A stretch of 38,954 nucleotides of DNA from an uncultured bacterium (GTDB taxonomy: Bacteria > Patescibacteriota > Minisyncoccia > Phycocordibacterales > CAIZLB01): positions 1 to 38,954 of the forward strand of contig CALMYA010000035.1 of NCBI GenBank assembly GCA_937873535.1, read 5' to 3'. Below the pieces are notes generated by a model, which searched no databases, was not told the origin of the DNA, and was given only the letters and a program-made list of their open reading frames with translations. Made by a program: the position numbers and the translations under genes. How positions within the stretch are numbered: position 1 is the stretch's first letter; each line of letters begins with the position of its first letter. Of the stretch, positions 1,516 to 37,428 are shown piece by piece.

Positions 1516-1529
1516 GTAGTGAGGACTAC

Positions 1530-1688
1530 GTATAACTCAGGCGATAAAGAGATGGGGGCGGACAGAACATCCTGTGGGGAGACTTGCGAGCTGCAGCGAG
1601 CACGAGGAATTTTTCAGCAGAAAAATATCCGTGCTCCCCACAGGATGTTCTGGTAGCCTCTTGAATCTCTTTATCGCCTGAGTTATAC
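1530..1688. repeat. Family-A nested palindromic element, copy 1
   Basis: Outer perfect 23-bp inverted repeat (1530-1552 / 1666-1688) and inner perfect 18-bp inverted repeat (1563-1580 / 1635-1652). The enclosed core is near-identical to the reverse complement of 22022-22090. Confidence 0.75.
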
Positions 1689-1689
1689 T
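1661..1689 (+). promoter_or_regulatory. Candidate nusB promoter TTGAAT-N17-TATACT, embedded in the right arm of the family-A element
   Basis: TTGAAT at 1661-1666 and TATACT at 1684-1689, exactly 17 nt apart. The nusB ATG at 1709 is 19 nt downstream of the -10. Confidence 0.45.
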
Positions 1690-1708
1690 TAATCCGAACA
1701 ACTTTGAT

Positions 1709-2799: not shown

Positions 2800-3492
2800 A
2801 TGGATTTAAGCGTTTTCGAAGCCGCAGTCGGCGTCACATTTAAAGATAAAAACCTGCTCAAACAGGCGTTTATTCATCGTTCATATTTGAATGAGAACCG
2901 CTCTTCGAAACTTGAGCATAACGAGCGTATGGAATTTCTAGGTGACGCGGTACTTGAGCTTGTCATAACTGAATATTTGTATAAAAAATATCCTGAAAAA
3001 AATGAGGGTGACCTTACTGCGTATCGTTCATCGCTTGTTAACTCTGTAACACTTTCTCAGGTTGCCGAGAAAATAGGCATGAATTCATTTTTGCACTTAT
3101 CGAAGGGCGAAGCTAAAGACACCGGCCGTGCCCGCCAATTTATTCTTGCCAACACATTCGAGTCGTTCGTAGGTGCAGTATATTTAGACCAGGGCTACGA
3201 CGCTGCACAAGGGTTCATTTCACGCCAGCTTTTCGAACTTATTAACGACATTGTCGCCAACCGCGGCTTTATTGATTCTAAAAGCCTTTTTCAGGAAGAA
3301 GCTCAAGAGCGAGTTGGCATTACTCCGGCATACAAGCTTATGAAAGAAACCGGCCCCGACCACAACAAAATTTTCACTGTTGGTGTGTTTTTACGAGATG
3401 ATTTGGTTATAACAGGCGAAGGGAAGTCGAAGCAAGAAGCCGAGCAGGTTGCCGCCCAGAAGGCGCTTGAGAGCAAAAAGTGGACTGCATAA
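2800..3492 (+). CDS. rnc: Ribonuclease III
   Basis: NERMEFLGDAVLELV signature, plus a C-terminal dsRBD (GPDHNKIFTV...GEGKSKQEAEQVAA). Confidence 0.93.
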   Translation: MDLSVFEAAVGVTFKDKNLLKQAFIHRSYLNENRSSKLEHNERMEFLGDAVLELVITEYLYKKYPEKNEGDLTAYRSSLVNSVTLSQVAEKIGMNSFLHLSKGEAKDTGRARQFILANTFESFVGAVYLDQGYDAAQGFISRQLFELINDIVANRGFIDSKSLFQEEAQERVGITPAYKLMKETGPDHNKIFTVGVFLRDDLVITGEGKSKQEAEQVAAQKALESKKWTA

Positions 3493-5886: not shown

Positions 5887-5940
5887 TATTTTTATAAAAA
5901 TTTTATCTTGTTTTCATGTCGACTTGCTAGAGTGTATTTT

Positions 5941-6384
5941 ATGAACAAGGAAGATGTCGATTTTGATGATTGGAATGATCTTAAAAAGAACATAGAAAGG
6001 GTGGCGAATTCGGCCCTCTTTCATGAAAGGGAAATTTGGTGGTGTTCACTTGGAATTAACCTAGGAGTAGAGACTGACGGCAAACACGAAAGATATGAGA
6101 GGCCCGTACTAATAATCAGAAAATTTAATCGTGACGTGGCTTGGGTTTTGCCAATGACATCAAAGGTAAAAGAATCGCCATTTCACCATTCATTTGAAAT
6201 GGGTAATAAGAAACGGTCTGTAATGCTTACTCAATTAAAAACTATAAGTACTAAAAGGCTATCACGAAAAATAGGAATGATGAGAATGGATGCATTTCTA
6301 GAAGTAAAGATCAAAACCGCAATGCATCTATTAAAAAACGAAACCCCGTCTTTCGACGAGGAATCTCGGAGGCCGAAGCCATAA
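5941..6384 (+). CDS. PemK/MazF-like toxin-fold protein
   Basis: REIWWCSLGINLGVETDG...RPVLIIRKF...VLPMTSK...SVMLTQLKTISTKRL matches the MazF/PemK SH3-like core pattern. ATG 5941 is preferred over the track's non-ATG start at 5908. Confidence 0.7.
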   Translation: MNKEDVDFDDWNDLKKNIERVANSALFHEREIWWCSLGINLGVETDGKHERYERPVLIIRKFNRDVAWVLPMTSKVKESPFHHSFEMGNKKRSVMLTQLKTISTKRLSRKIGMMRMDAFLEVKIKTAMHLLKNETPSFDEESRRPKP

Positions 6385-16790: not shown

Positions 16791-17770
16791 TGTACAGTTA
16801 ACCATATGGGGTGACAGTTCTGCTAGGATTGGGGTGACTAAGCTTAACCAACCTTAATTTAAAGCATATGGCAAACAAAAAGCAGATACCGGCATACCCA
16901 GCGAAGGTTAGGCAGAAGTGGTATTTTCTGGTCGACAAGGTCGGAAAGACAGTGGATGAAGTGTGTGACATATATATGATTCCAAGGAAGACCTACTACA
17001 AATGGAAGAAAATTGATTTAGGCAGCAGGAATCATATTCCAAAGAAAGAGCACCCTGACACAAAACTTAAAGGTGAAGTGAAAGAGTTTGTAATTAAAGA
17101 GAAATTGCGAATTAACTACGGACCGAGAAAAATGAAGCTCTTGTTGAAGCGCAGATTCAATATCACTGTTTCAACTACAGCAATCTACAACCTGTACCTC
17201 AAGAAAGAGTTAATACGAAGACCCCAGAAAAAGCTTCCTTGGTACAAACCAATCAAAGAGGTGGTGATACCAGAGATGCCGGGAGAGGTGGTGCAAATGG
17301 ATGCGAAGTATGTGTGGGAAAGCGGGACACGTCGATATCAACGTACATTCATTGACATATTCACAGGCAGACAGTTTGCCACTGTTACAAACTCAATGAC
17401 TTCTGAAGATACGGTGAATGCTTTTTTGGAAGCAGAACGATATTTTCCTTTCAAAATTTTAGGTGTACAGAGTGACAACGGATCTGAAAACCGAGGAGAG
17501 TTTCATCAACATGTAGGTCAGAAAGGCATCGCTCACTACTTCATCCCGAAATCATCTCCGACATGGGATGGAGCAGTTGAAAGAGCACATGGAGTGATTG
17601 ATCAGGAATATTACCTTAATCCTACGAGACCTTGGAAAACATTGTCAGAGTATTTAGAGTTCTACAATTACGAAAGAATACATCTCGGCAAGTATTTGAA
17701 CGGAATGACACCACAAGAAAAATGGCAGCAGTGGCTATCCACAGTGTCACCCTTGAAGGTTAACTAAACA
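16791..17770 (+). mobile_element. IS481/IS3-superfamily-like insertion sequence (~980 bp) with a 5-bp target duplication
   Basis: Imperfect terminal IRs: TGTACAGTTAACCatatgGGGTGACA (16791-) and the reverse complement of 17742-17770, TGTTTAGTTAACCttcaaGGGTGACA. TGT...ACA termini. GTTTT direct repeats at 16786-16790 and 17771-17775. One DDE transposase ORF fills the element. Confidence 0.8.
16868..17767 (+). CDS. DDE (rve / integrase-core) transposase
   Basis: N-terminal HTH. Catalytic region VVQMDAKYV...QSDNGSENRGEF...WDGAVERAH (D, D, E). The ORF ends inside the right IR. Confidence 0.88.
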   Translation: MANKKQIPAYPAKVRQKWYFLVDKVGKTVDEVCDIYMIPRKTYYKWKKIDLGSRNHIPKKEHPDTKLKGEVKEFVIKEKLRINYGPRKMKLLLKRRFNITVSTTAIYNLYLKKELIRRPQKKLPWYKPIKEVVIPEMPGEVVQMDAKYVWESGTRRYQRTFIDIFTGRQFATVTNSMTSEDTVNAFLEAERYFPFKILGVQSDNGSENRGEFHQHVGQKGIAHYFIPKSSPTWDGAVERAHGVIDQEYYLNPTRPWKTLSEYLEFYNYERIHLGKYLNGMTPQEKWQQWLSTVSPLKVN

Positions 17771-17776
17771 GTTTTG

Positions 17777-17848
17777 TGACCCTACCGGGAGTCGAACCCG
17801 GCTTCTCTGCTTGAAAAGCAAATGTCCTAACCGATAGACGATAGGGCC
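17777..17848 (-). tRNA. tRNA-Glu (anticodon UUC), CCA not encoded
   Basis: Reverse complement folds as a cloverleaf: acceptor GGCCCTA/TAGGGTC, anticodon loop TTTTCAA, T-arm CCGGG-TTCGACT-CCCGG. 72 nt. Confidence 0.9.
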
Positions 17849-17923: not shown

Positions 17924-18013
17924 GGAGAGATGGCTGAGTGGTTGAAGGCACCAGTTTCGAAAACTGGCATGGGGGAAACCCTATCGGGAGTTCAAATCTC
18001 CCTCTCTCCGCCA
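17924..18013 (+). tRNA. tRNA-Ser (anticodon CGA), long variable arm, CCA encoded
   Basis: Acceptor GGAGAGA/TCTCTCC, anticodon arm CCAGT-TTCGAAA-ACTGG, variable arm CATGGGGGAAACCCTATC, T-arm GGGAG-TTCAAAT-CTCCC, then G-CCA. Confidence 0.92.
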
Positions 18014-20174: not shown

Positions 20175-21998
20175 ATGGTACAAAAAATCATCGAGTCTAC
20201 TTACTCTAGAAGCAAAGACTTCATGGCAATGTTCGTATACGCCGTGCGATTTTGCTATTTCAAGCCTGCTCGCAAGCTTTTTTGGGGGCTTATTGTTTTT
20301 GCTGCCGGTGTTGCCTCGCTTCCTCTTATAAGCGCTAAAGTTACCGGAGTAATAGTAGATACACTCACCGAAAAGCTTCAGCTTGGATCATTCGATACGG
20401 CCACGTTCAACTATGTGATTTTACTTACCGTGCTTTGGGCGTTTATCGATAACTTCGACAGCATTTTCAATACGGCAAAACGATATATTCGAACGCTTTG
20501 GACGTATCGAACTCAAATTGAATACGAGCTTAAAATTCTGGAGAAACGAATTGAAATAGACAGCGCTACTAGAGAGCAGGAATCATACAGAAACCTGGAA
20601 CAGCATGCTTTCGAAAAGGGCCCTTTTGTTGCTTGGAATTTGGCGCAAGGGTTTTTTAGGTATTGGGAAATATCTGTAGGATTTTTGGTGGCCGCTTTCA
20701 TTTTGGGTTTTAGTAATTTTTGGGTGCTTATTATTCTGGTAATGACGGCTCTGCCGCAGCTTGTCATCAATATAAAATTCGGCGAGAAAACATACGGTAT
20801 TTGGACGAGGAAGGGAGGCAAGGTCCAACGACTTTATTACTATTTCAGAAGCCTAATCGGTACAGAAACACTTGAATTAAACAACACAAGTAGAGTATTT
20901 TACGATAAAGTTGAAGGAATTCACCGCGACACTCAAGGAAGAATTCACGCCGAAGAAAAACGCCGTCTCGCATATACCTTTGCCAGCGACTTCATAAGTC
21001 TTCTGGGTGTTTTAGCATCTTTTTTGCTTATTGTGCTATCTGTACTTTCAGGTGCTGCAACCATTGGCGCCCTCATATTCCTGCGCGCATCAATCTACAA
21101 GTTTTCAAGCGCCTTGGAGCAGCTCATTGAGGAAGTAACGAACGACTACGAATATGTTTTGTACACCAAAGACCTCAAAGAGTGGTTTGCCATCAAACCG
21201 TTTGTAAGCGCTAAAACGGGCGACCCGTTTCCATTGCAAAAGGCCGCGCCCCTTATTGAGTTCAAGAATGTATCTTTTTCATACCCGGGTGAGAGAAATA
21301 AAGTGCTCAAAAATGTAAATCTTACAATTCAGAGCGGTGAGCGAATTGCTCTCATCGGCAACAACGGGGCAGGGAAGTCATCCCTCATTAAATTGTTGCT
21401 GAGAATTTACGACCCTACTGAAGGCGAAGTTACCGTTAACGGCAAAGATATAAAAACTATAAAAGTACGCGATTGGCGCGCGAATATTTCAGCATTATTG
21501 CAGGAATATCTGGTATTTAACATGAAAACAAAAGAGTCTATTTGGGCAAAAGTGAACCCCGACAAAGGCAGTAAAGCCGGCGCAATTGAGGCAGCCACAG
21601 CCAGCACCGCCTCAGACTTCATCGATAGATGGGACGACAAATATGAAGAGCAGATCGGCAAGGAATTCGGCGGCAAAGAGCTTTCTCGCGGCCAAAAACA
21701 GAAACTTTCGCTTGCCAGCACCCTGTACCGCGACACACCAATACTTATTCTCGACGAACCTACATCCGCCATCGACTCCGAATCTGAACTCTCAATTTTC
21801 AAAGCACTCGAGAAACTGCCAAAGTCGAAAACAATTGTATTCGTATCGCACGACATGGCCGTAGTAAGAAACGCCGATAGAATCATCGTGCTCAAAGACG
21901 GCGTATTAATAGAAGACGGCAGCCATGCTGAATTATTCGAAAAGAAGGGCTACTACAGCCGAATTTACAGCGAGCAGGTGGAGGCGATGACGAAGTAA
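20175..21998 (+). CDS. ABC exporter, fused permease/ATPase (MsbA-like half transporter)
   Basis: N-terminal 6-TM domain. Walker A GNNGAGKSS, signature LSRGQKQKLSLA, Walker B ILILDEPTSAID, H-loop VSHD. The start is uncertain (ATG 20175 overlaps a TATAAT). Confidence 0.88.
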   Translation: MVQKIIESTYSRSKDFMAMFVYAVRFCYFKPARKLFWGLIVFAAGVASLPLISAKVTGVIVDTLTEKLQLGSFDTATFNYVILLTVLWAFIDNFDSIFNTAKRYIRTLWTYRTQIEYELKILEKRIEIDSATREQESYRNLEQHAFEKGPFVAWNLAQGFFRYWEISVGFLVAAFILGFSNFWVLIILVMTALPQLVINIKFGEKTYGIWTRKGGKVQRLYYYFRSLIGTETLELNNTSRVFYDKVEGIHRDTQGRIHAEEKRRLAYTFASDFISLLGVLASFLLIVLSVLSGAATIGALIFLRASIYKFSSALEQLIEEVTNDYEYVLYTKDLKEWFAIKPFVSAKTGDPFPLQKAAPLIEFKNVSFSYPGERNKVLKNVNLTIQSGERIALIGNNGAGKSSLIKLLLRIYDPTEGEVTVNGKDIKTIKVRDWRANISALLQEYLVFNMKTKESIWAKVNPDKGSKAGAIEAATASTASDFIDRWDDKYEEQIGKEFGGKELSRGQKQKLSLASTLYRDTPILILDEPTSAIDSESELSIFKALEKLPKSKTIVFVSHDMAVVRNADRIIVLKDGVLIEDGSHAELFEKKGYYSRIYSEQVEAMTK

Positions 21999-22115
21999 AG
22001 GGTGCATTTCCTGCGTGTATTTGGGAGCACGGATATTTTCCTGCTGGAAAATTCCTCGTGCTTGCTCCGTCGAGTCTCGCAAGTCTCCCAAATACACGCA
22101 GGAAATGCACCCTTT
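21997..22115. repeat. Family-A palindromic element, copy 2 (core inverted relative to copy 1)
   Basis: Perfect 31-bp arms 21997-22027 / 22085-22115. The left arm starts within the ABC gene's TAA stop. The core matches the reverse complement of 1576-1640. Confidence 0.75.
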
Positions 22116-22156
22116 ATCTACGCCAGCATTTTTGATACACTAGCTTCTACAACTAT

Positions 22157-27915: not shown

Positions 27916-29025
27916 ATGCACGTAATGACTCCAAAAAAAGTAGACCGTCCGTTCCTCATACTCACATCAATTCTTGTTGTTTTGGGCTATTTAATTTTTT
28001 CTTCTGCAGCGCTAGGGCTTGTCACCAGAAATGCAGGGCTTTTTCAGGCGGTTACGTTCAACCAGGTAGTGCTCGGGCTTATATGCGGCAGCATCGCCGC
28101 GTTTATTTTTTCAAAAATTAGCTACCAGCATTGGCGAACATACGCATTTTATATTTTTCTTTTTTCAGCCCTGATGATGGTTCTTGTTTTCATCCCGCAT
28201 GTCGGCCAATTTCATGGCGGCGCACGGCGCTGGATAGGCATAGGCTCATTCAGCTTTCAGCCGGCCGAATTTTTTAAGATTGGTTTTGTGATGTATGCCG
28301 CAGCATGGTATGCGTCTGTAAAGGCCAAAGCTGCAACCTTGAAATTCGGCGCAGCGCCTTTTCTTGTTCTTATTGCCATTGCCGGTGCCCTCATCTTGGC
28401 GCAGCCTGATACCGACACTTTTCTAGTTATTGCCGTAGCCGGCCTGGCCATATATTTTGCCGCGGGCGCTCGTTGGCGAGACATTCTCATAATGGGTTTG
28501 CTTGGCGCTGTTTTAATTACAGGAATTGCCATGACTCGGCCCTACGTGATGCAGCGCATTCAAACATTCGTTGACCCTTCAAAAGACCCTACAGGCAGCG
28601 GCTATCAAATTCAGCAGTCGCTCATCGCCATCGGTTCAGGCGGCTTATTCGGCCGCGGCTTCGGGCAGAGCATTCAAAAATTTAATTATCTTCCCGAACC
28701 GATAGGGGATTCAATATTCGCTGTAGCCTCAGAAGAATTTGGTTTTCTAGGCTCGGTTTCCATTATTCTTTTATATATTTTGTTCGCATTCCAAGGCTTC
28801 CGCATCGCCCTTCGCGCCCCCGACGCCTTCGGCACATATTTGGTTCTCGGCTTGGTCATTCTTATTACAGTGCAATCATTTTTAAATATTTCAGCCATGC
28901 TCGGTATTACGCCACTTTCAGGTACGCCGTTATTATTCATTTCGCATGGAGGAACCGCGCTGTTCTTTGCGCTGTCGTCGGTTGGAATTATTTTAAATGT
29001 TTCGAGGTATCAGAAGAAGAAATAA
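27916..29025 (+). CDS. ftsW: SEDS-family peptidoglycan glycosyltransferase FtsW/RodA
   Basis: FQPAEFFKI, QPDTDT, GYQIQQSLIAIGSGGLFGRGFGQS, LPEPIGDSIFA. The start may be ATG 27925 (7 nt after TATAAT). Confidence 0.9.
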   Translation: MHVMTPKKVDRPFLILTSILVVLGYLIFSSAALGLVTRNAGLFQAVTFNQVVLGLICGSIAAFIFSKISYQHWRTYAFYIFLFSALMMVLVFIPHVGQFHGGARRWIGIGSFSFQPAEFFKIGFVMYAAAWYASVKAKAATLKFGAAPFLVLIAIAGALILAQPDTDTFLVIAVAGLAIYFAAGARWRDILIMGLLGAVLITGIAMTRPYVMQRIQTFVDPSKDPTGSGYQIQQSLIAIGSGGLFGRGFGQSIQKFNYLPEPIGDSIFAVASEEFGFLGSVSIILLYILFAFQGFRIALRAPDAFGTYLVLGLVILITVQSFLNISAMLGITPLSGTPLLFISHGGTALFFALSSVGIILNVSRYQKKK

Positions 29026-29095
29026 CAAATACCCCATATTCATGAGCATGCGTATCTGCGATATGCTCATGAATATGGGGTATTTGTTATTTCTT
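29017..29095. repeat. Family-B palindromic element (33-bp perfect stem, 13-nt loop), doubling as the ftsW 3' hairpin
   Basis: Arms 29017-29049 / 29063-29095 are perfectly complementary. The loop is GCGTATCTGCGAT. The left arm contains the last ftsW codons and the TAA stop (29023-29025). Confidence 0.75.
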
Positions 29096-29113
29096 TCTAG
29101 TAATTTATAAAAG

Positions 29114-29147
29114 AAAACCCCTCCGCTGTCACTACGGAAGGGTTTTT
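29114..29147. terminator. Terminator of the antisense ORF 29201..29653 (bidirectional geometry)
   Basis: AAAACCCCTCCG-N9-CGGAAGGGTTTTT with one mismatch. T-runs follow on both strands. Confidence 0.6.
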
Positions 29148-29200
29148 CGTTTGTTGAGGGTTGTATTGGGTGACGGAGTGCAGAATAATGACTTAGTACA

Positions 29201-29653
29201 TCATGTATTCCACTCGAACCATAGGGCGCAAGCGGAACCGTTAGTGTACAGATTCAACTGATCGGCGCGGCTTAATGTTTGACGCGGGTTCTTCAAATCG
29301 TAAAAGACTCGCGTTTTCTCATTGAAACCGACCAAACACTTCTTTCTTATGCGAAGCCGTTCATTAGGCAACTCACCCTCCGCTACAAGCCTGCCTGTGG
29401 CTTCTGCTTTCGATATGTAATTCGAGCGGCAAATTACATCAGGCATTGCTGCTGCATTGGGGTTGAAGACGACGTCAATCAAGACGCCGCAAAGGAAACG
29501 ACGTGTTGTCCCAGTTCGGCCGTGGTTCGGAACGAACCATATAGCCATGTCAGGTACGCGCCGCACTGCGACACGCTCAGTAGGTAATACTATTCCATTC
29601 ATAAGACTGTTGCTGTTTAAGTTTTTGGTTAAGGAAGACAGGCCTGCAGACAC
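29201..29653 (-). CDS. Hypothetical protein (150 aa), SD-led orphan, antisense within the mraY-ftsW-murG cluster
   Basis: AAGGAGG lies 11 nt before the ATG, and the gene has its own terminator. No recognisable domain. Confidence 0.55.
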   Translation of the reverse strand: MSAGLSSLTKNLNSNSLMNGIVLPTERVAVRRVPDMAIWFVPNHGRTGTTRRFLCGVLIDVVFNPNAAAMPDVICRSNYISKAEATGRLVAEGELPNERLRIRKKCLVGFNEKTRVFYDLKNPRQTLSRADQLNLYTNGSACALWFEWNT

Positions 29654-29760
29654 ATTCAGAACTATCCTCCTTAACCAAAATCTGTGTAAAGTGCTTCTAT
29701 CTAATAGGTATATTTGTACATTTATTGCCTTCCGTCAATGGTATATGGTATTTGTTTAGA

Positions 29761-29859: not shown

Positions 29860-30999
29860 ATGAAGATTTTGATGACAGGCGGCGGCTCGGGCGGCCATTT
29901 TTACCCGATAATTGCCATAGCCGAAGAAATACGCGAAATATGCAAAAAAGAGAGAATTCTCGACCCCGAGATTCTTTTCATGTCGCCGAACAAATACAAC
30001 CCAAAAGAGCTTTTTGATCACGATATAGAGTTCGTACCGGTGGCGGCAGGGAAGCGGCGGGTCAGCCCTTCAGGCGCGAGTAAAATACTCAATTTTATAG
30101 ACATGTTCAAGATGGGCATTGGCGTCATCTCGGCGCTTTTCAAGCTCTATTCTATTTTCCCCGACGTCGTTTTCGCCAAAGGCGGATACACCAGCTTCCC
30201 GGCATTAATGGCTGCACGAATTTTGGGTATTCCAGTTATTATTCATGAATCAGACAGCGTGCCTGGCCGGGTTAACCTTTGGGCAGGGAAGTTCGCACAA
30301 CGAATTGCACTTTCGTACAAAGAAGCTGCACAATTTTTTCCTGCCGGCAAAACTGCTTACACAGGCAACCCGGTTCGCCGCGACCTTCGCCAGCCGCTTA
30401 CCACAGGCGCTCTTGAATATCTTCATCTTGAAACAAATGTTCCAACCGTGCTCATTCTCGGCGGGTCACAGGGCGCACGAGTCATAAACGACGCCGTTCT
30501 TACAGCATTGCCGAGACTTGTCGAGAAATATCAAATACTGCATCAAACAGGCCGAACGAATTTTGAAGAATGCTCACGAACTGCCAACGTGGTGCTGAGC
30601 GAAAACCCGCTTATAGGCCGCTACCATCCGTTCGACTACTTCAACACTTTGGCCATGCGTATGGCCGCGGGCGTTTCATCTCTTGTTATTTCTCGCGGCG
30701 GTTCGCAAATTTTTGAAATTGCATTGTGGGGGCTGCCGAGTATTCTGGTACCAATTACCGATTCAAACGGCGATCATCAGCGAAAAAATTCATATAACTA
30801 TGCCCGCGAAGGAGCGGCAGTTGTCATTGAAGAGGCAAACTTGAGCCCCGAAATCATCATGAATGAAATAAGCAGAATAATGGATAACCCGAAAGTGCTT
30901 GAACGCATGCGAGCTGGTACCAAAAACTTCGCCCGCGAAGATTCAGCGGCGCTCATAGCTCATGAAGTATTAAAAATTGCCCTCAAGCACGAGGTTTAA
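29860..30999 (+). CDS. murG: UDP-N-acetylglucosamine--N-acetylmuramyl-(pentapeptide) pyrophosphoryl-undecaprenol GlcNAc transferase
   Basis: MKILMTGGGSGGHFYPIIAIAEE, HESDSVPG, GGSQGA. An extended -10 (TGaTATACT) lies 9 nt upstream of the ATG. Confidence 0.93.
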   Translation: MKILMTGGGSGGHFYPIIAIAEEIREICKKERILDPEILFMSPNKYNPKELFDHDIEFVPVAAGKRRVSPSGASKILNFIDMFKMGIGVISALFKLYSIFPDVVFAKGGYTSFPALMAARILGIPVIIHESDSVPGRVNLWAGKFAQRIALSYKEAAQFFPAGKTAYTGNPVRRDLRQPLTTGALEYLHLETNVPTVLILGGSQGARVINDAVLTALPRLVEKYQILHQTGRTNFEECSRTANVVLSENPLIGRYHPFDYFNTLAMRMAAGVSSLVISRGGSQIFEIALWGLPSILVPITDSNGDHQRKNSYNYAREGAAVVIEEANLSPEIIMNEISRIMDNPKVLERMRAGTKNFAREDSAALIAHEVLKIALKHEV

Positions 31000-37304: not shown

Positions 37305-37326
37305 CCTTCTACCCTTCCTTACAACA

Positions 37327-37363
37327 CAAAAACCGCACCTACATTTCGTAGGTGCGGTTTTTG
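37327..37363. terminator. Bidirectional rho-independent terminator
   Basis: AAAAACCGCACCTAC-atttc-GTAGGTGCGGTTTTT, sitting between convergent genes. Confidence 0.8.
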
Positions 37364-37428
37364 TATATCTTGTTTGTGCTTATCTTTTCTAGTGATTTAG
37401 CGATACCTAGAACCTTAGTGGCTCTATT

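Follow-up and report, generated by a model that had tools for sequence, protein, structure and literature searches.

Proteobacteria are well known to carry dispersed palindromic repeats at the ends of genes. The REP, BIME and REPIN sequences, which are mobilised by RAYT, a Y1 HUH transposase, fold into hairpins both as RNA and as DNA and contribute to termination and to the stability of mRNA. Here we describe an element that resembles them, a perfect palindrome at the stop codon of ftsW in a 38,954-nt stretch of DNA (contig CALMYA010000035.1 of assembly GCA_937873535.1, positions 1 to 38,954 of the forward strand; hereafter the window) from an uncultured bacterium (Patescibacteriota; Minisyncoccia; Phycocordibacterales; CAIZLB01). 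This hairpin is genuine, and it represents one copy in a lineage-specific family of palindromic elements of about 80 nt in Patescibacteria, which we call family B. Like the REP sequences, family B consists of short dispersed extragenic palindromes at gene 3' ends, often between convergent genes, and shows no target-site duplication. However, REP stems are conserved (5' GTAG) and the loop is free, whereas family B, hosted by Patescibacteria, reverses this usual rule with an invariant loop and with stems that are hypervariable yet perfect and carry no GTAG. Pfam scans of the open reading frames (ORFs) in the window, which cover 39 kb of the genome, found no RAYT gene.

The Correia elements (NEMIS/CREE) of Neisseria and comparable MITEs (miniature inverted-repeat transposable elements; RUP, ERIC) are likewise small non-coding dispersed repeats whose inverted repeats form long RNA hairpins and which often abut or overlap gene ends, as family B does, and they act as terminators. 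Correia-type elements are cleaved by RNase III. Family B probably works like REP/BIME or Correia-type repeats, yet it does not belong to either by the features that define them: stem conservation, GTAG, duplication of the target and a matching insertion sequence (IS). As far as our literature searches reached, no equivalent dispersed palindromic repeat at gene ends has been described for Patescibacteria (the candidate phyla radiation, CPR). The parts of the element at ftsW and the second copy in the window are as follows.

27916..29025, plus strand: ftsW (FtsW/RodA/SpoVE; Pfam FTSW_RODA_SPOVE, E=1.6e-92), with its stop codon in the left arm
29017..29049, no strand assigned: left arm of the family-B palindrome; it opens with 9 nt of ftsW, namely the codons AAG AAA and the stop TAA
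29044..29068, plus strand: conserved 25-nt apex, i.e. the closing pairs GAGCAT/ATGCTC plus the loop
29050..29062, plus strand: invariant asymmetric 13-nt loop or spacer, GCGTATCTGCGAT
29063..29095, no strand assigned: right arm of the same palindrome, reverse-complementary to the left arm at every position, with the T-rich end TATTTGTTATTTCTT
10387..10467, minus strand: second family-B copy, with 34-nt perfect arms and the opposite loop orientation, between a 116-aa ORF and a convergent HSP20 gene whose stop is covered by the right arm

An inverted-repeat search of the window recovered the ftsW hairpin with 33 of 33 arm positions paired (100% complementary) and 13 nt between the arms, in agreement with the perfect 33-bp stem claimed in an earlier note made from the sequence. 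The composition of the left arm given there, AAG AAA TAA plus 24 nt downstream, was confirmed by the end of the ORF at 29025: the arm holds 9 coding nt (6 sense nt, i.e. two Lys codons, and the stop) followed by 24 non-coding nt. Pairing halts at the arm boundaries, where the next positions are G/T and then A/C. The RNA of this region folds at -72.8 kcal/mol, compared with -32.3 +/- 4.1 kcal/mol in 200 shuffles (z = -9.9). The stem contains GGGG and is followed by TATTTGTTATTTCTT, with the mirror tract AAGAAATAACAAATA upstream.

That the palindrome could be an assembly fold-back artefact, which had been named as a possible refutation, is almost certainly not the case. The two Logan unitigs of SRR6158310 that reach the locus do break at the palindrome, as an artefact might suggest; they end at window positions 29046 and 29066 (L002 and L137), symmetrically, each 3 nt before the inner end of the arm, and this is what is expected of a k-mer assembler that meets a genuine palindrome. 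The identical 79-nt element was found in the same context in SPAdes contigs (ENA) of three other samples, ERZ1749587, ERZ1749613 and ERZ1749656 (L001, L136 and L138), so that four independent assemblies from different samples agree. The contigs of ERZ1749613 and ERZ1749656 run across ftsW, the palindrome, the ORFan behind it and murG. The FtsW of the window (369 aa) is not in the contig index; a 366-aa version (P0001) is, and it led to the contig of ERZ1749587, in which the downstream sequence is also identical to the window. Normal flanking sequence continues on both sides, and 20 further loci of a different project show the same architecture. An empty site was not found for comparison: the element is present in every near-identical contig, duplicates among the metagenome loci do not differ at all (100% identity), and the next relatives are too diverged.

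The 25-nt apex, GAGCAT-GCGTATCTGCGAT-ATGCTC, occurs twice in the window, at 29044-29068 on the plus and at 10415-10439 on the minus strand, with 0 occurrences expected from shuffles. With a 21-nt apex pattern, 20 metagenome loci (contigs OFQY, OFRM and OFRG) yielded 22 matches, and three more copies were present in the flanks of these loci; after removal of duplicates that were 100% identical between assemblies, 21 distinct copies remained. No orthology was found between the window and the metagenome loci. The window has about 2 copies per 39 kb, and the density of the loop word is about 1 per 5-20 kb. The 21-nt pattern had 0 matches in 185,579 GTDB species genomes, a 19-nt apex pattern had none in IMG/VR, and no near-match to the loop or apex was detected in 808 kb of other Patescibacteria loci. 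Long perfect hairpins are scarce in other Patescibacteria (4 in 791 kb). Family B is restricted to a narrow group of Paceibacteria-like Patescibacteria.

Known families were considered and rejected. An Rfam scan of the window at gathering thresholds returned only two tRNAs, and a permissive scan of 28980-29160 only sub-threshold matches to generic hairpins resembling miRNA precursors. A phage or mobile origin of the apex, or of the core of a second family described below (family A), was rejected since neither occurs in IMG/VR.

The 13-nt loop is exact in 21 of 21 distinct copies, so the conserved apex that the earlier note had proposed is indeed a feature of the family. Genuine copies with 2-3 loop mismatches are absent from about 203 kb, and in the same sequence no exact or near-exact copy of the loop word occurs in coding or other non-hairpin DNA. 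Two atypical copies were observed. One, at L007:960-1025 (copy L007:985), has a single loop substitution (ATCGCATATACGC), the sole near-miss loop in these 203 kb, and its arms are decayed, short and mismatched. The other, at L011:4692-4716 (L011:4698), is an apex-only copy, GAGCAT-loop-ATGCTC, which retains the 6-bp closing stem but has no pairing past it; it lies between divergent gene starts and not at a gene end. Short exact words that are independent of orientation and sit in terminator hairpins of one lineage are also known as the inverted pairs of the Neisseria DNA uptake sequence (DUS) and the Pasteurellaceae uptake signal sequence (USS). Yet DUS and USS form the stems, occur at about 1 per kb and are frequent inside genes, whereas in family B a single copy of the word makes up the loop, and the word is never found outside a hairpin; neither the density nor the location inside genes expected of an uptake sequence was observed.

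Around this loop the arms vary freely and remain paired. The two innermost closing pairs are invariant, and 20 of 21 copies have CAT/ATG. Most often the closing arm is GAGCAT; its variants CAGCAT, CTGCAT, CGGCAT, CCGTAT and GAACAT are always compensated on the other arm. All four base-pair types occur at nearly every arm position from d=5 outward among the 21 copies, and still 92% of positions out to d=27 are Watson-Crick pairs, with only 12 G/T in 567 cells, most of them from decayed copies. From d=32 to d=35 the pairing breaks down, which gives an arm of about 32 nt and a unit of about 77-80 nt. Arm lengths range from 27 to 37 nt, about twice those of ordinary terminator arms (12-20 nt). Neither a direct repeat or target-site duplication nor a constant dinucleotide was found at the arm boundaries of the 21 copies. 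The loop is seen in either orientation, the two copies of the window being opposite.

From the invariance of the loop it follows that either a trans-acting factor recognises it or the family spread very recently. Invariant loop, compensated closing pairs and variable stems are the classic signature of loop recognition, and a hairpin of RNA or single-stranded DNA whose loop is bound by a lineage-specific protein would account for them. Such a protein could serve mRNA 3'-end stabilisation or processing, nick the site in the manner of HUH enzymes, or bind cruciforms, termination being secondary. The narrow distribution in GTDB, IMG/VR and the 808 kb of other Patescibacteria agrees with this, as does the fact that the single loop mutant also has decayed arms. 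However, in co-directional contexts the two loop orientations occur at about 6:4 with respect to transcription, without evident bias, so that the target cannot be one and the same RNA loop sequence in every copy. Independence of orientation would be expected only if double-stranded DNA or a cruciform were recognised, and a loop-recognising factor would therefore most plausibly act on one of these. Moreover, if selection acted at the RNA level only, G-U pairs and an occasional mismatch should be tolerated, yet both are nearly absent. A candidate protein was not found, and Rfam contained no matching family. We consider loop binding as the primary function to be unlikely.

The position of the copies points to transcript ends. 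The distance to a stop codon is -14 to +18 nt in nearly all; about 8 are found between convergent genes, and one comes immediately after a tRNA gene. In about 7 of 17 cases an arm covers the stop codon, and up to three codons, and thus the overlap at ftsW is a habit of the family. At about 15 of the 21 copies, no second hairpin with a perfect stem lies within 160 nt, so that most loci have no terminator candidate besides the element. At d=19-30, A on the 5' arm goes with T on the 3' arm in 11-15 of the 21 copies, as opposed to 1-4 with the reversed arrangement, and a T-tract follows the stem on both strands. A transcript from either strand would hence read A-tract, long stem, loop, stem, U-tract. 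The reading we favour, to which we assign a probability of roughly 0.55, is that family B is a lineage-restricted dispersed palindromic repeat at gene 3' ends and most likely a bidirectional intrinsic terminator. Its long perfect RNA duplex would presumably also be a substrate of RNase III, the gene for which (rnc) is present in the window.

The earlier note had set a conventional bidirectional terminator with A/T-rich arms and no conserved apex against its own model. The A/T polarity is indeed present, but the apex is conserved all the same, so neither pure alternative holds. That family B might be nothing but an ordinary bidirectional terminator, with a loop common by descent or chance and no special copying of the arms, agrees with the polarity and the location at gene ends; ordinary terminators of this genome, e.g. 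that at 37326-37364, also have perfectly complementary A/T tracts. Against this stand 21 copies at unrelated loci in at least two genomes with an identical 13-nt loop, for which chance predicts 0, and arms of 27-37 nt instead of 12-20 nt that are perfect despite extensive divergence. It is therefore highly improbable.

How the arms arose was examined at ftsW itself. FtsW relatives end in ...RYQKK[K/A/G]*, and the relative L003, whose FtsW is 86% identical, has the same CAG AAG AAG AAA TAA without a palindrome. The 3' end of ftsW is thus conserved in the absence of the hairpin, as had been suggested as a check, and the coding end in the left arm is ancestral. Given the composition of the outer right arms of the family, the complementarity of the nine outer positions has P = 4e-4. 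This improbable match, and arms that are perfect in spite of varied pairs, show that some copying or homogenisation of one arm onto the other at the DNA level is needed. On the other hand, the inner 24 nt or so of the arms of the ftsW copy (ACCCCATATTC..GAGCAT) recur at L006, L009, L021 and L011 of another genome, the flanks of which have no homology to the window or to one another; the outer arm at L009 carries AAGAAATAA, and two copies, L011_5256 and L021_10013, have the whole arm in common. Hence the whole hairpin behaves as a dispersed unit with arms that are mostly borne by the element. The claim that the right arm is an inverted copy of local coding sequence therefore stands insofar as a copying process is required, and falls insofar as only 9 nt are coding and the inner part of the arm occurs elsewhere.

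These data bear on a model that develops the idea of the earlier note, in which only the apex of about 25 nt is mobile or seeded, and, once it has arrived beside a gene end, its small hairpin primes fold-back synthesis that inverts about 30 nt of the adjacent local DNA, one arm being original and the other a new copy. The non-random complement of the ancestral ftsW end in the right arm is what this model predicts. Between different loci, most pairs of arms resemble each other no more than shuffles of matched composition do (mean 5.0 observed vs 4.1 for the null), some arms do not look like terminators, the sharp arm length fits a ruler-like copying step, and L011:4698 has the apex and its closing stem but no arms. 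The recurrence of inner or whole arms at non-homologous loci, however, speaks against a local origin, and the consistent polarity of A- and T-tracts is unlike random local sequence. Neither a half-apex nor a donor of the apex was found elsewhere in 224 kb, nor was an enzyme candidate. We regard seeding by the apex as unlikely. The notion that the apex represents the joined ends or the attachment site of a larger element was rejected on the same lack of a half-apex.

Mobile DNA that recognises terminator hairpins by their structure and not their sequence has a precedent in hairpin-targeting IS; its insertion would leave a conserved insert between locus-specific inverted repeats. IS1272/TnSha1 of the IS1182 family shows structure-directed insertion into terminator hairpins (PMC4923244), and IS1397 inserts into REP loops (PMC1525189). 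These are full-length elements with transposase genes that delete part of their target, whereas the insert in family B would be of 13-25 nt, and no half-sites or full-length relative were found. MITEs have conserved terminal inverted repeats that match a parent IS, a TA or other duplication and 100-400 internal nt, whereas family B is a pure palindrome of about 80 nt without these. The MITE model was rejected because of the missing target-site duplication and since the only sequence shared with the IS of the window is a 10-mer in the wrong orientation. The window's only IS is an IS-like unit at 16791-17770, which encodes a 299-aa rve (integrase-core) transposase with an N-terminal HTH (helix-turn-helix) and has 26-nt imperfect terminal inverted repeats; it adjoins tRNA genes at 17777-17848 (minus strand) and 17924-18010 (plus strand). 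One of its terminal repeats contains ATATGGGGTG, a 10-mer also found in the arms of a family-B subfamily, in an orientation that does not suit a relation of parent and MITE.

As part of the favoured reading, the arms are probably kept perfect by template switching within each palindrome. As an established mutational process, template switching of the intra-strand kind at quasipalindromes perfects and extends inverted repeats and inverts spacers (PMC7202029, PMC8604942, PMC8794818), and it has been found to homogenise the arms of inverted repeats and to create and maintain hairpins (PMC8604942, PMC8794818). During replication of family B, such quasipalindrome correction would copy a change in one arm onto the other, could extend the pairing outward and would invert the spacer. 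What is observed, i.e. perfect arms with few G/T intermediates, concerted change, both spacer orientations and pairing that extends into the ancestral ftsW end, fits this process (PMC8794818, PMC8604942, PMC7202029), and an unbiased loop orientation is expected if the spacer flips. At ftsW, either template switching or an A-rich microhomology at the time when the hairpin was copied in may have made the right arm complementary to the ancestral AAG AAA TAA. Possibly the hairpin was copied in at an A-rich microhomology and then homogenised within the palindrome; this would reconcile the element-borne inner arms with the captured coding end.

Several points weigh against the favoured reading. Template switching is a mutational process and not an element family; it accounts for the perfect arms, but not for the invariant loop shared by many loci or for dispersal to unrelated loci. 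The role of family B as a bidirectional intrinsic terminator, although the most likely one, was read from anatomy, and the ORF calls under the counts of position and orientation are heuristic. A loop of 13 nt and a stem of 33 bp are too large for canonical terminators, which have loops of 3-8 nt and stems of about 5-15 bp. A terminator consensus scan did not call the ftsW hairpin, though it called the one at 29114-29146, and with this ordinary terminator located 18 nt downstream the hairpin is not needed for termination there. Several copies (L005a, L007, L015/L024) do not have clear A/T tracts. No close relative offered an empty site, and the element may have been inserted or may have grown in situ; the lack of a target-site duplication in the 21 copies was accompanied by the lack of a candidate mobilising enzyme in Pfam scans of the window ORFs.

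Perfect helices are not confined to family B in this lineage. A second motif, family A, is present twice in the window, with its core at 1563-1652 and within 21996-22116.

1516..1702, plus strand: family-A element directly upstream of nusB, with a 52-nt core, perfect inner arms of 19 nt and outer arms of 38 nt
21996..22116, minus strand: family-A element with a 57-nt conserved structured core on 32-nt perfect arms that start at the TAA stop of an ABC-ATPase gene

The core of about 56 nt consists of ACUUGCGAG, a hairpin, GAGCACGAGGAA, a hairpin with a CAGCAG loop, and UAUCCGUG. It matches more than 111 loci (L025-L135) in Paceibacteria and other Patescibacteria metagenome-assembled genomes (MAGs), is multi-copy and intergenic, and occurs in either orientation relative to its neighbours. 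RNAalifold of 43 copies gave a three-way junction in which 20 of 28 pairs show compensatory changes; a long-range U-A/A-U pair covaries 35 vs 8 with none broken, and G-U pairs occur on one strand only. No Rfam family matched, a permissive scan returning only generic miRNA-like hairpins, and the core looks like an undescribed structured motif. The two families have the same architecture, a module on a long perfect helix, with unrelated cores. In this lineage family A sits on near-perfect arms of 20-34 nt that start at stop codons: its closing helices are 20-34 nt in the genomes that bear family B, compared with a median of 14 nt in 107 copies of other Patescibacteria (p=0.0017). Together with the scarcity of long perfect hairpins and the absence of B-like loops elsewhere, this supports an effect at the level of the lineage.

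A more far-reaching interpretation is that family B and, in this lineage, family A are new self-propagating hairpin elements. One arm and the loop would be inherited and the second arm regenerated by hairpin-primed fold-back synthesis, similar to a rolling hairpin, under the direction of a lineage-specific enzyme for which the 13-nt loop in extruded DNA would be the recognition site. If true, this would jointly explain the perfect arms, their rapid concerted divergence, the flip-flop of the loop, the arm length of about 32 nt, the capture of coding sequence and the invariance of the loop. We hold it to be distinctly unlikely.

The earlier note had also pointed out that the element is followed by an independently terminated antisense orphan gene which interrupts the order of ftsW and murG. 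The features of this gap are as follows.

29114..29146, no strand assigned: ordinary bidirectional terminator hairpin with 12-nt arms and a 9-nt loop, 18 nt past the palindrome; it serves the antisense ORFan
29201..29653, minus strand: antisense ORFan, 150 aa, without family match or homologue
29860..30999, plus strand: murG

The gene is a true ORFan with its own terminator: it has no Pfam, PHROG or NCBIfam match, and among 5.8e9 proteins it found only itself. A link to the hairpin was not borne out. In the relatives L003 and L004 (FtsW 80% identical in the latter), the ftsW-murG gap holds other ORFs, unrelated to the ORFan and to each other, and no palindrome; thus the gap is a variable spot independent of the hairpin. 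FtsW homologues came from Paceibacteria, Taylorbacteria and other Patescibacteria MAGs. In ftsW DNA, identity to the closest relatives of different sequence is about 74%, and the intergenic regions of these relatives do not align. An imperfect inverted repeat at 29620-29683 (27-nt arms with 81% complementarity around a spacer of 10 nt) overlaps the ORFan start and lies in the spacer between ORFan and murG.

Elsewhere the window carries housekeeping genes, namely those for aminoacyl-tRNA synthetases, SMC/ScpAB, RNase III, RNase R, RNase HII and a NusB-NUDIX fusion, besides mraY, ftsW and murG. A PemK/MazF-like toxin ORF (5908-6384; PF02452, E=1.9e-12) directly follows the SMC gene.

1709-2629: NusB-NUDIX fusion ORF
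2800..3492: RNase III (rnc), following the NusB-NUDIX ORF

The covarying family-A core, absent from Rfam, may matter more than the ftsW hairpin. Family-B palindromes fragment k-mer assemblies of this genome and embed stop codons, which makes them relevant to the assembly and annotation of MAGs. Their invariant loop predicts a trans-acting partner, a prediction that can be tested. With its free yet perfect stems, family B offers a clean natural example in which to study how long perfect hairpins arise and persist in a tiny genome, be it by template switching or by a dedicated mechanism.

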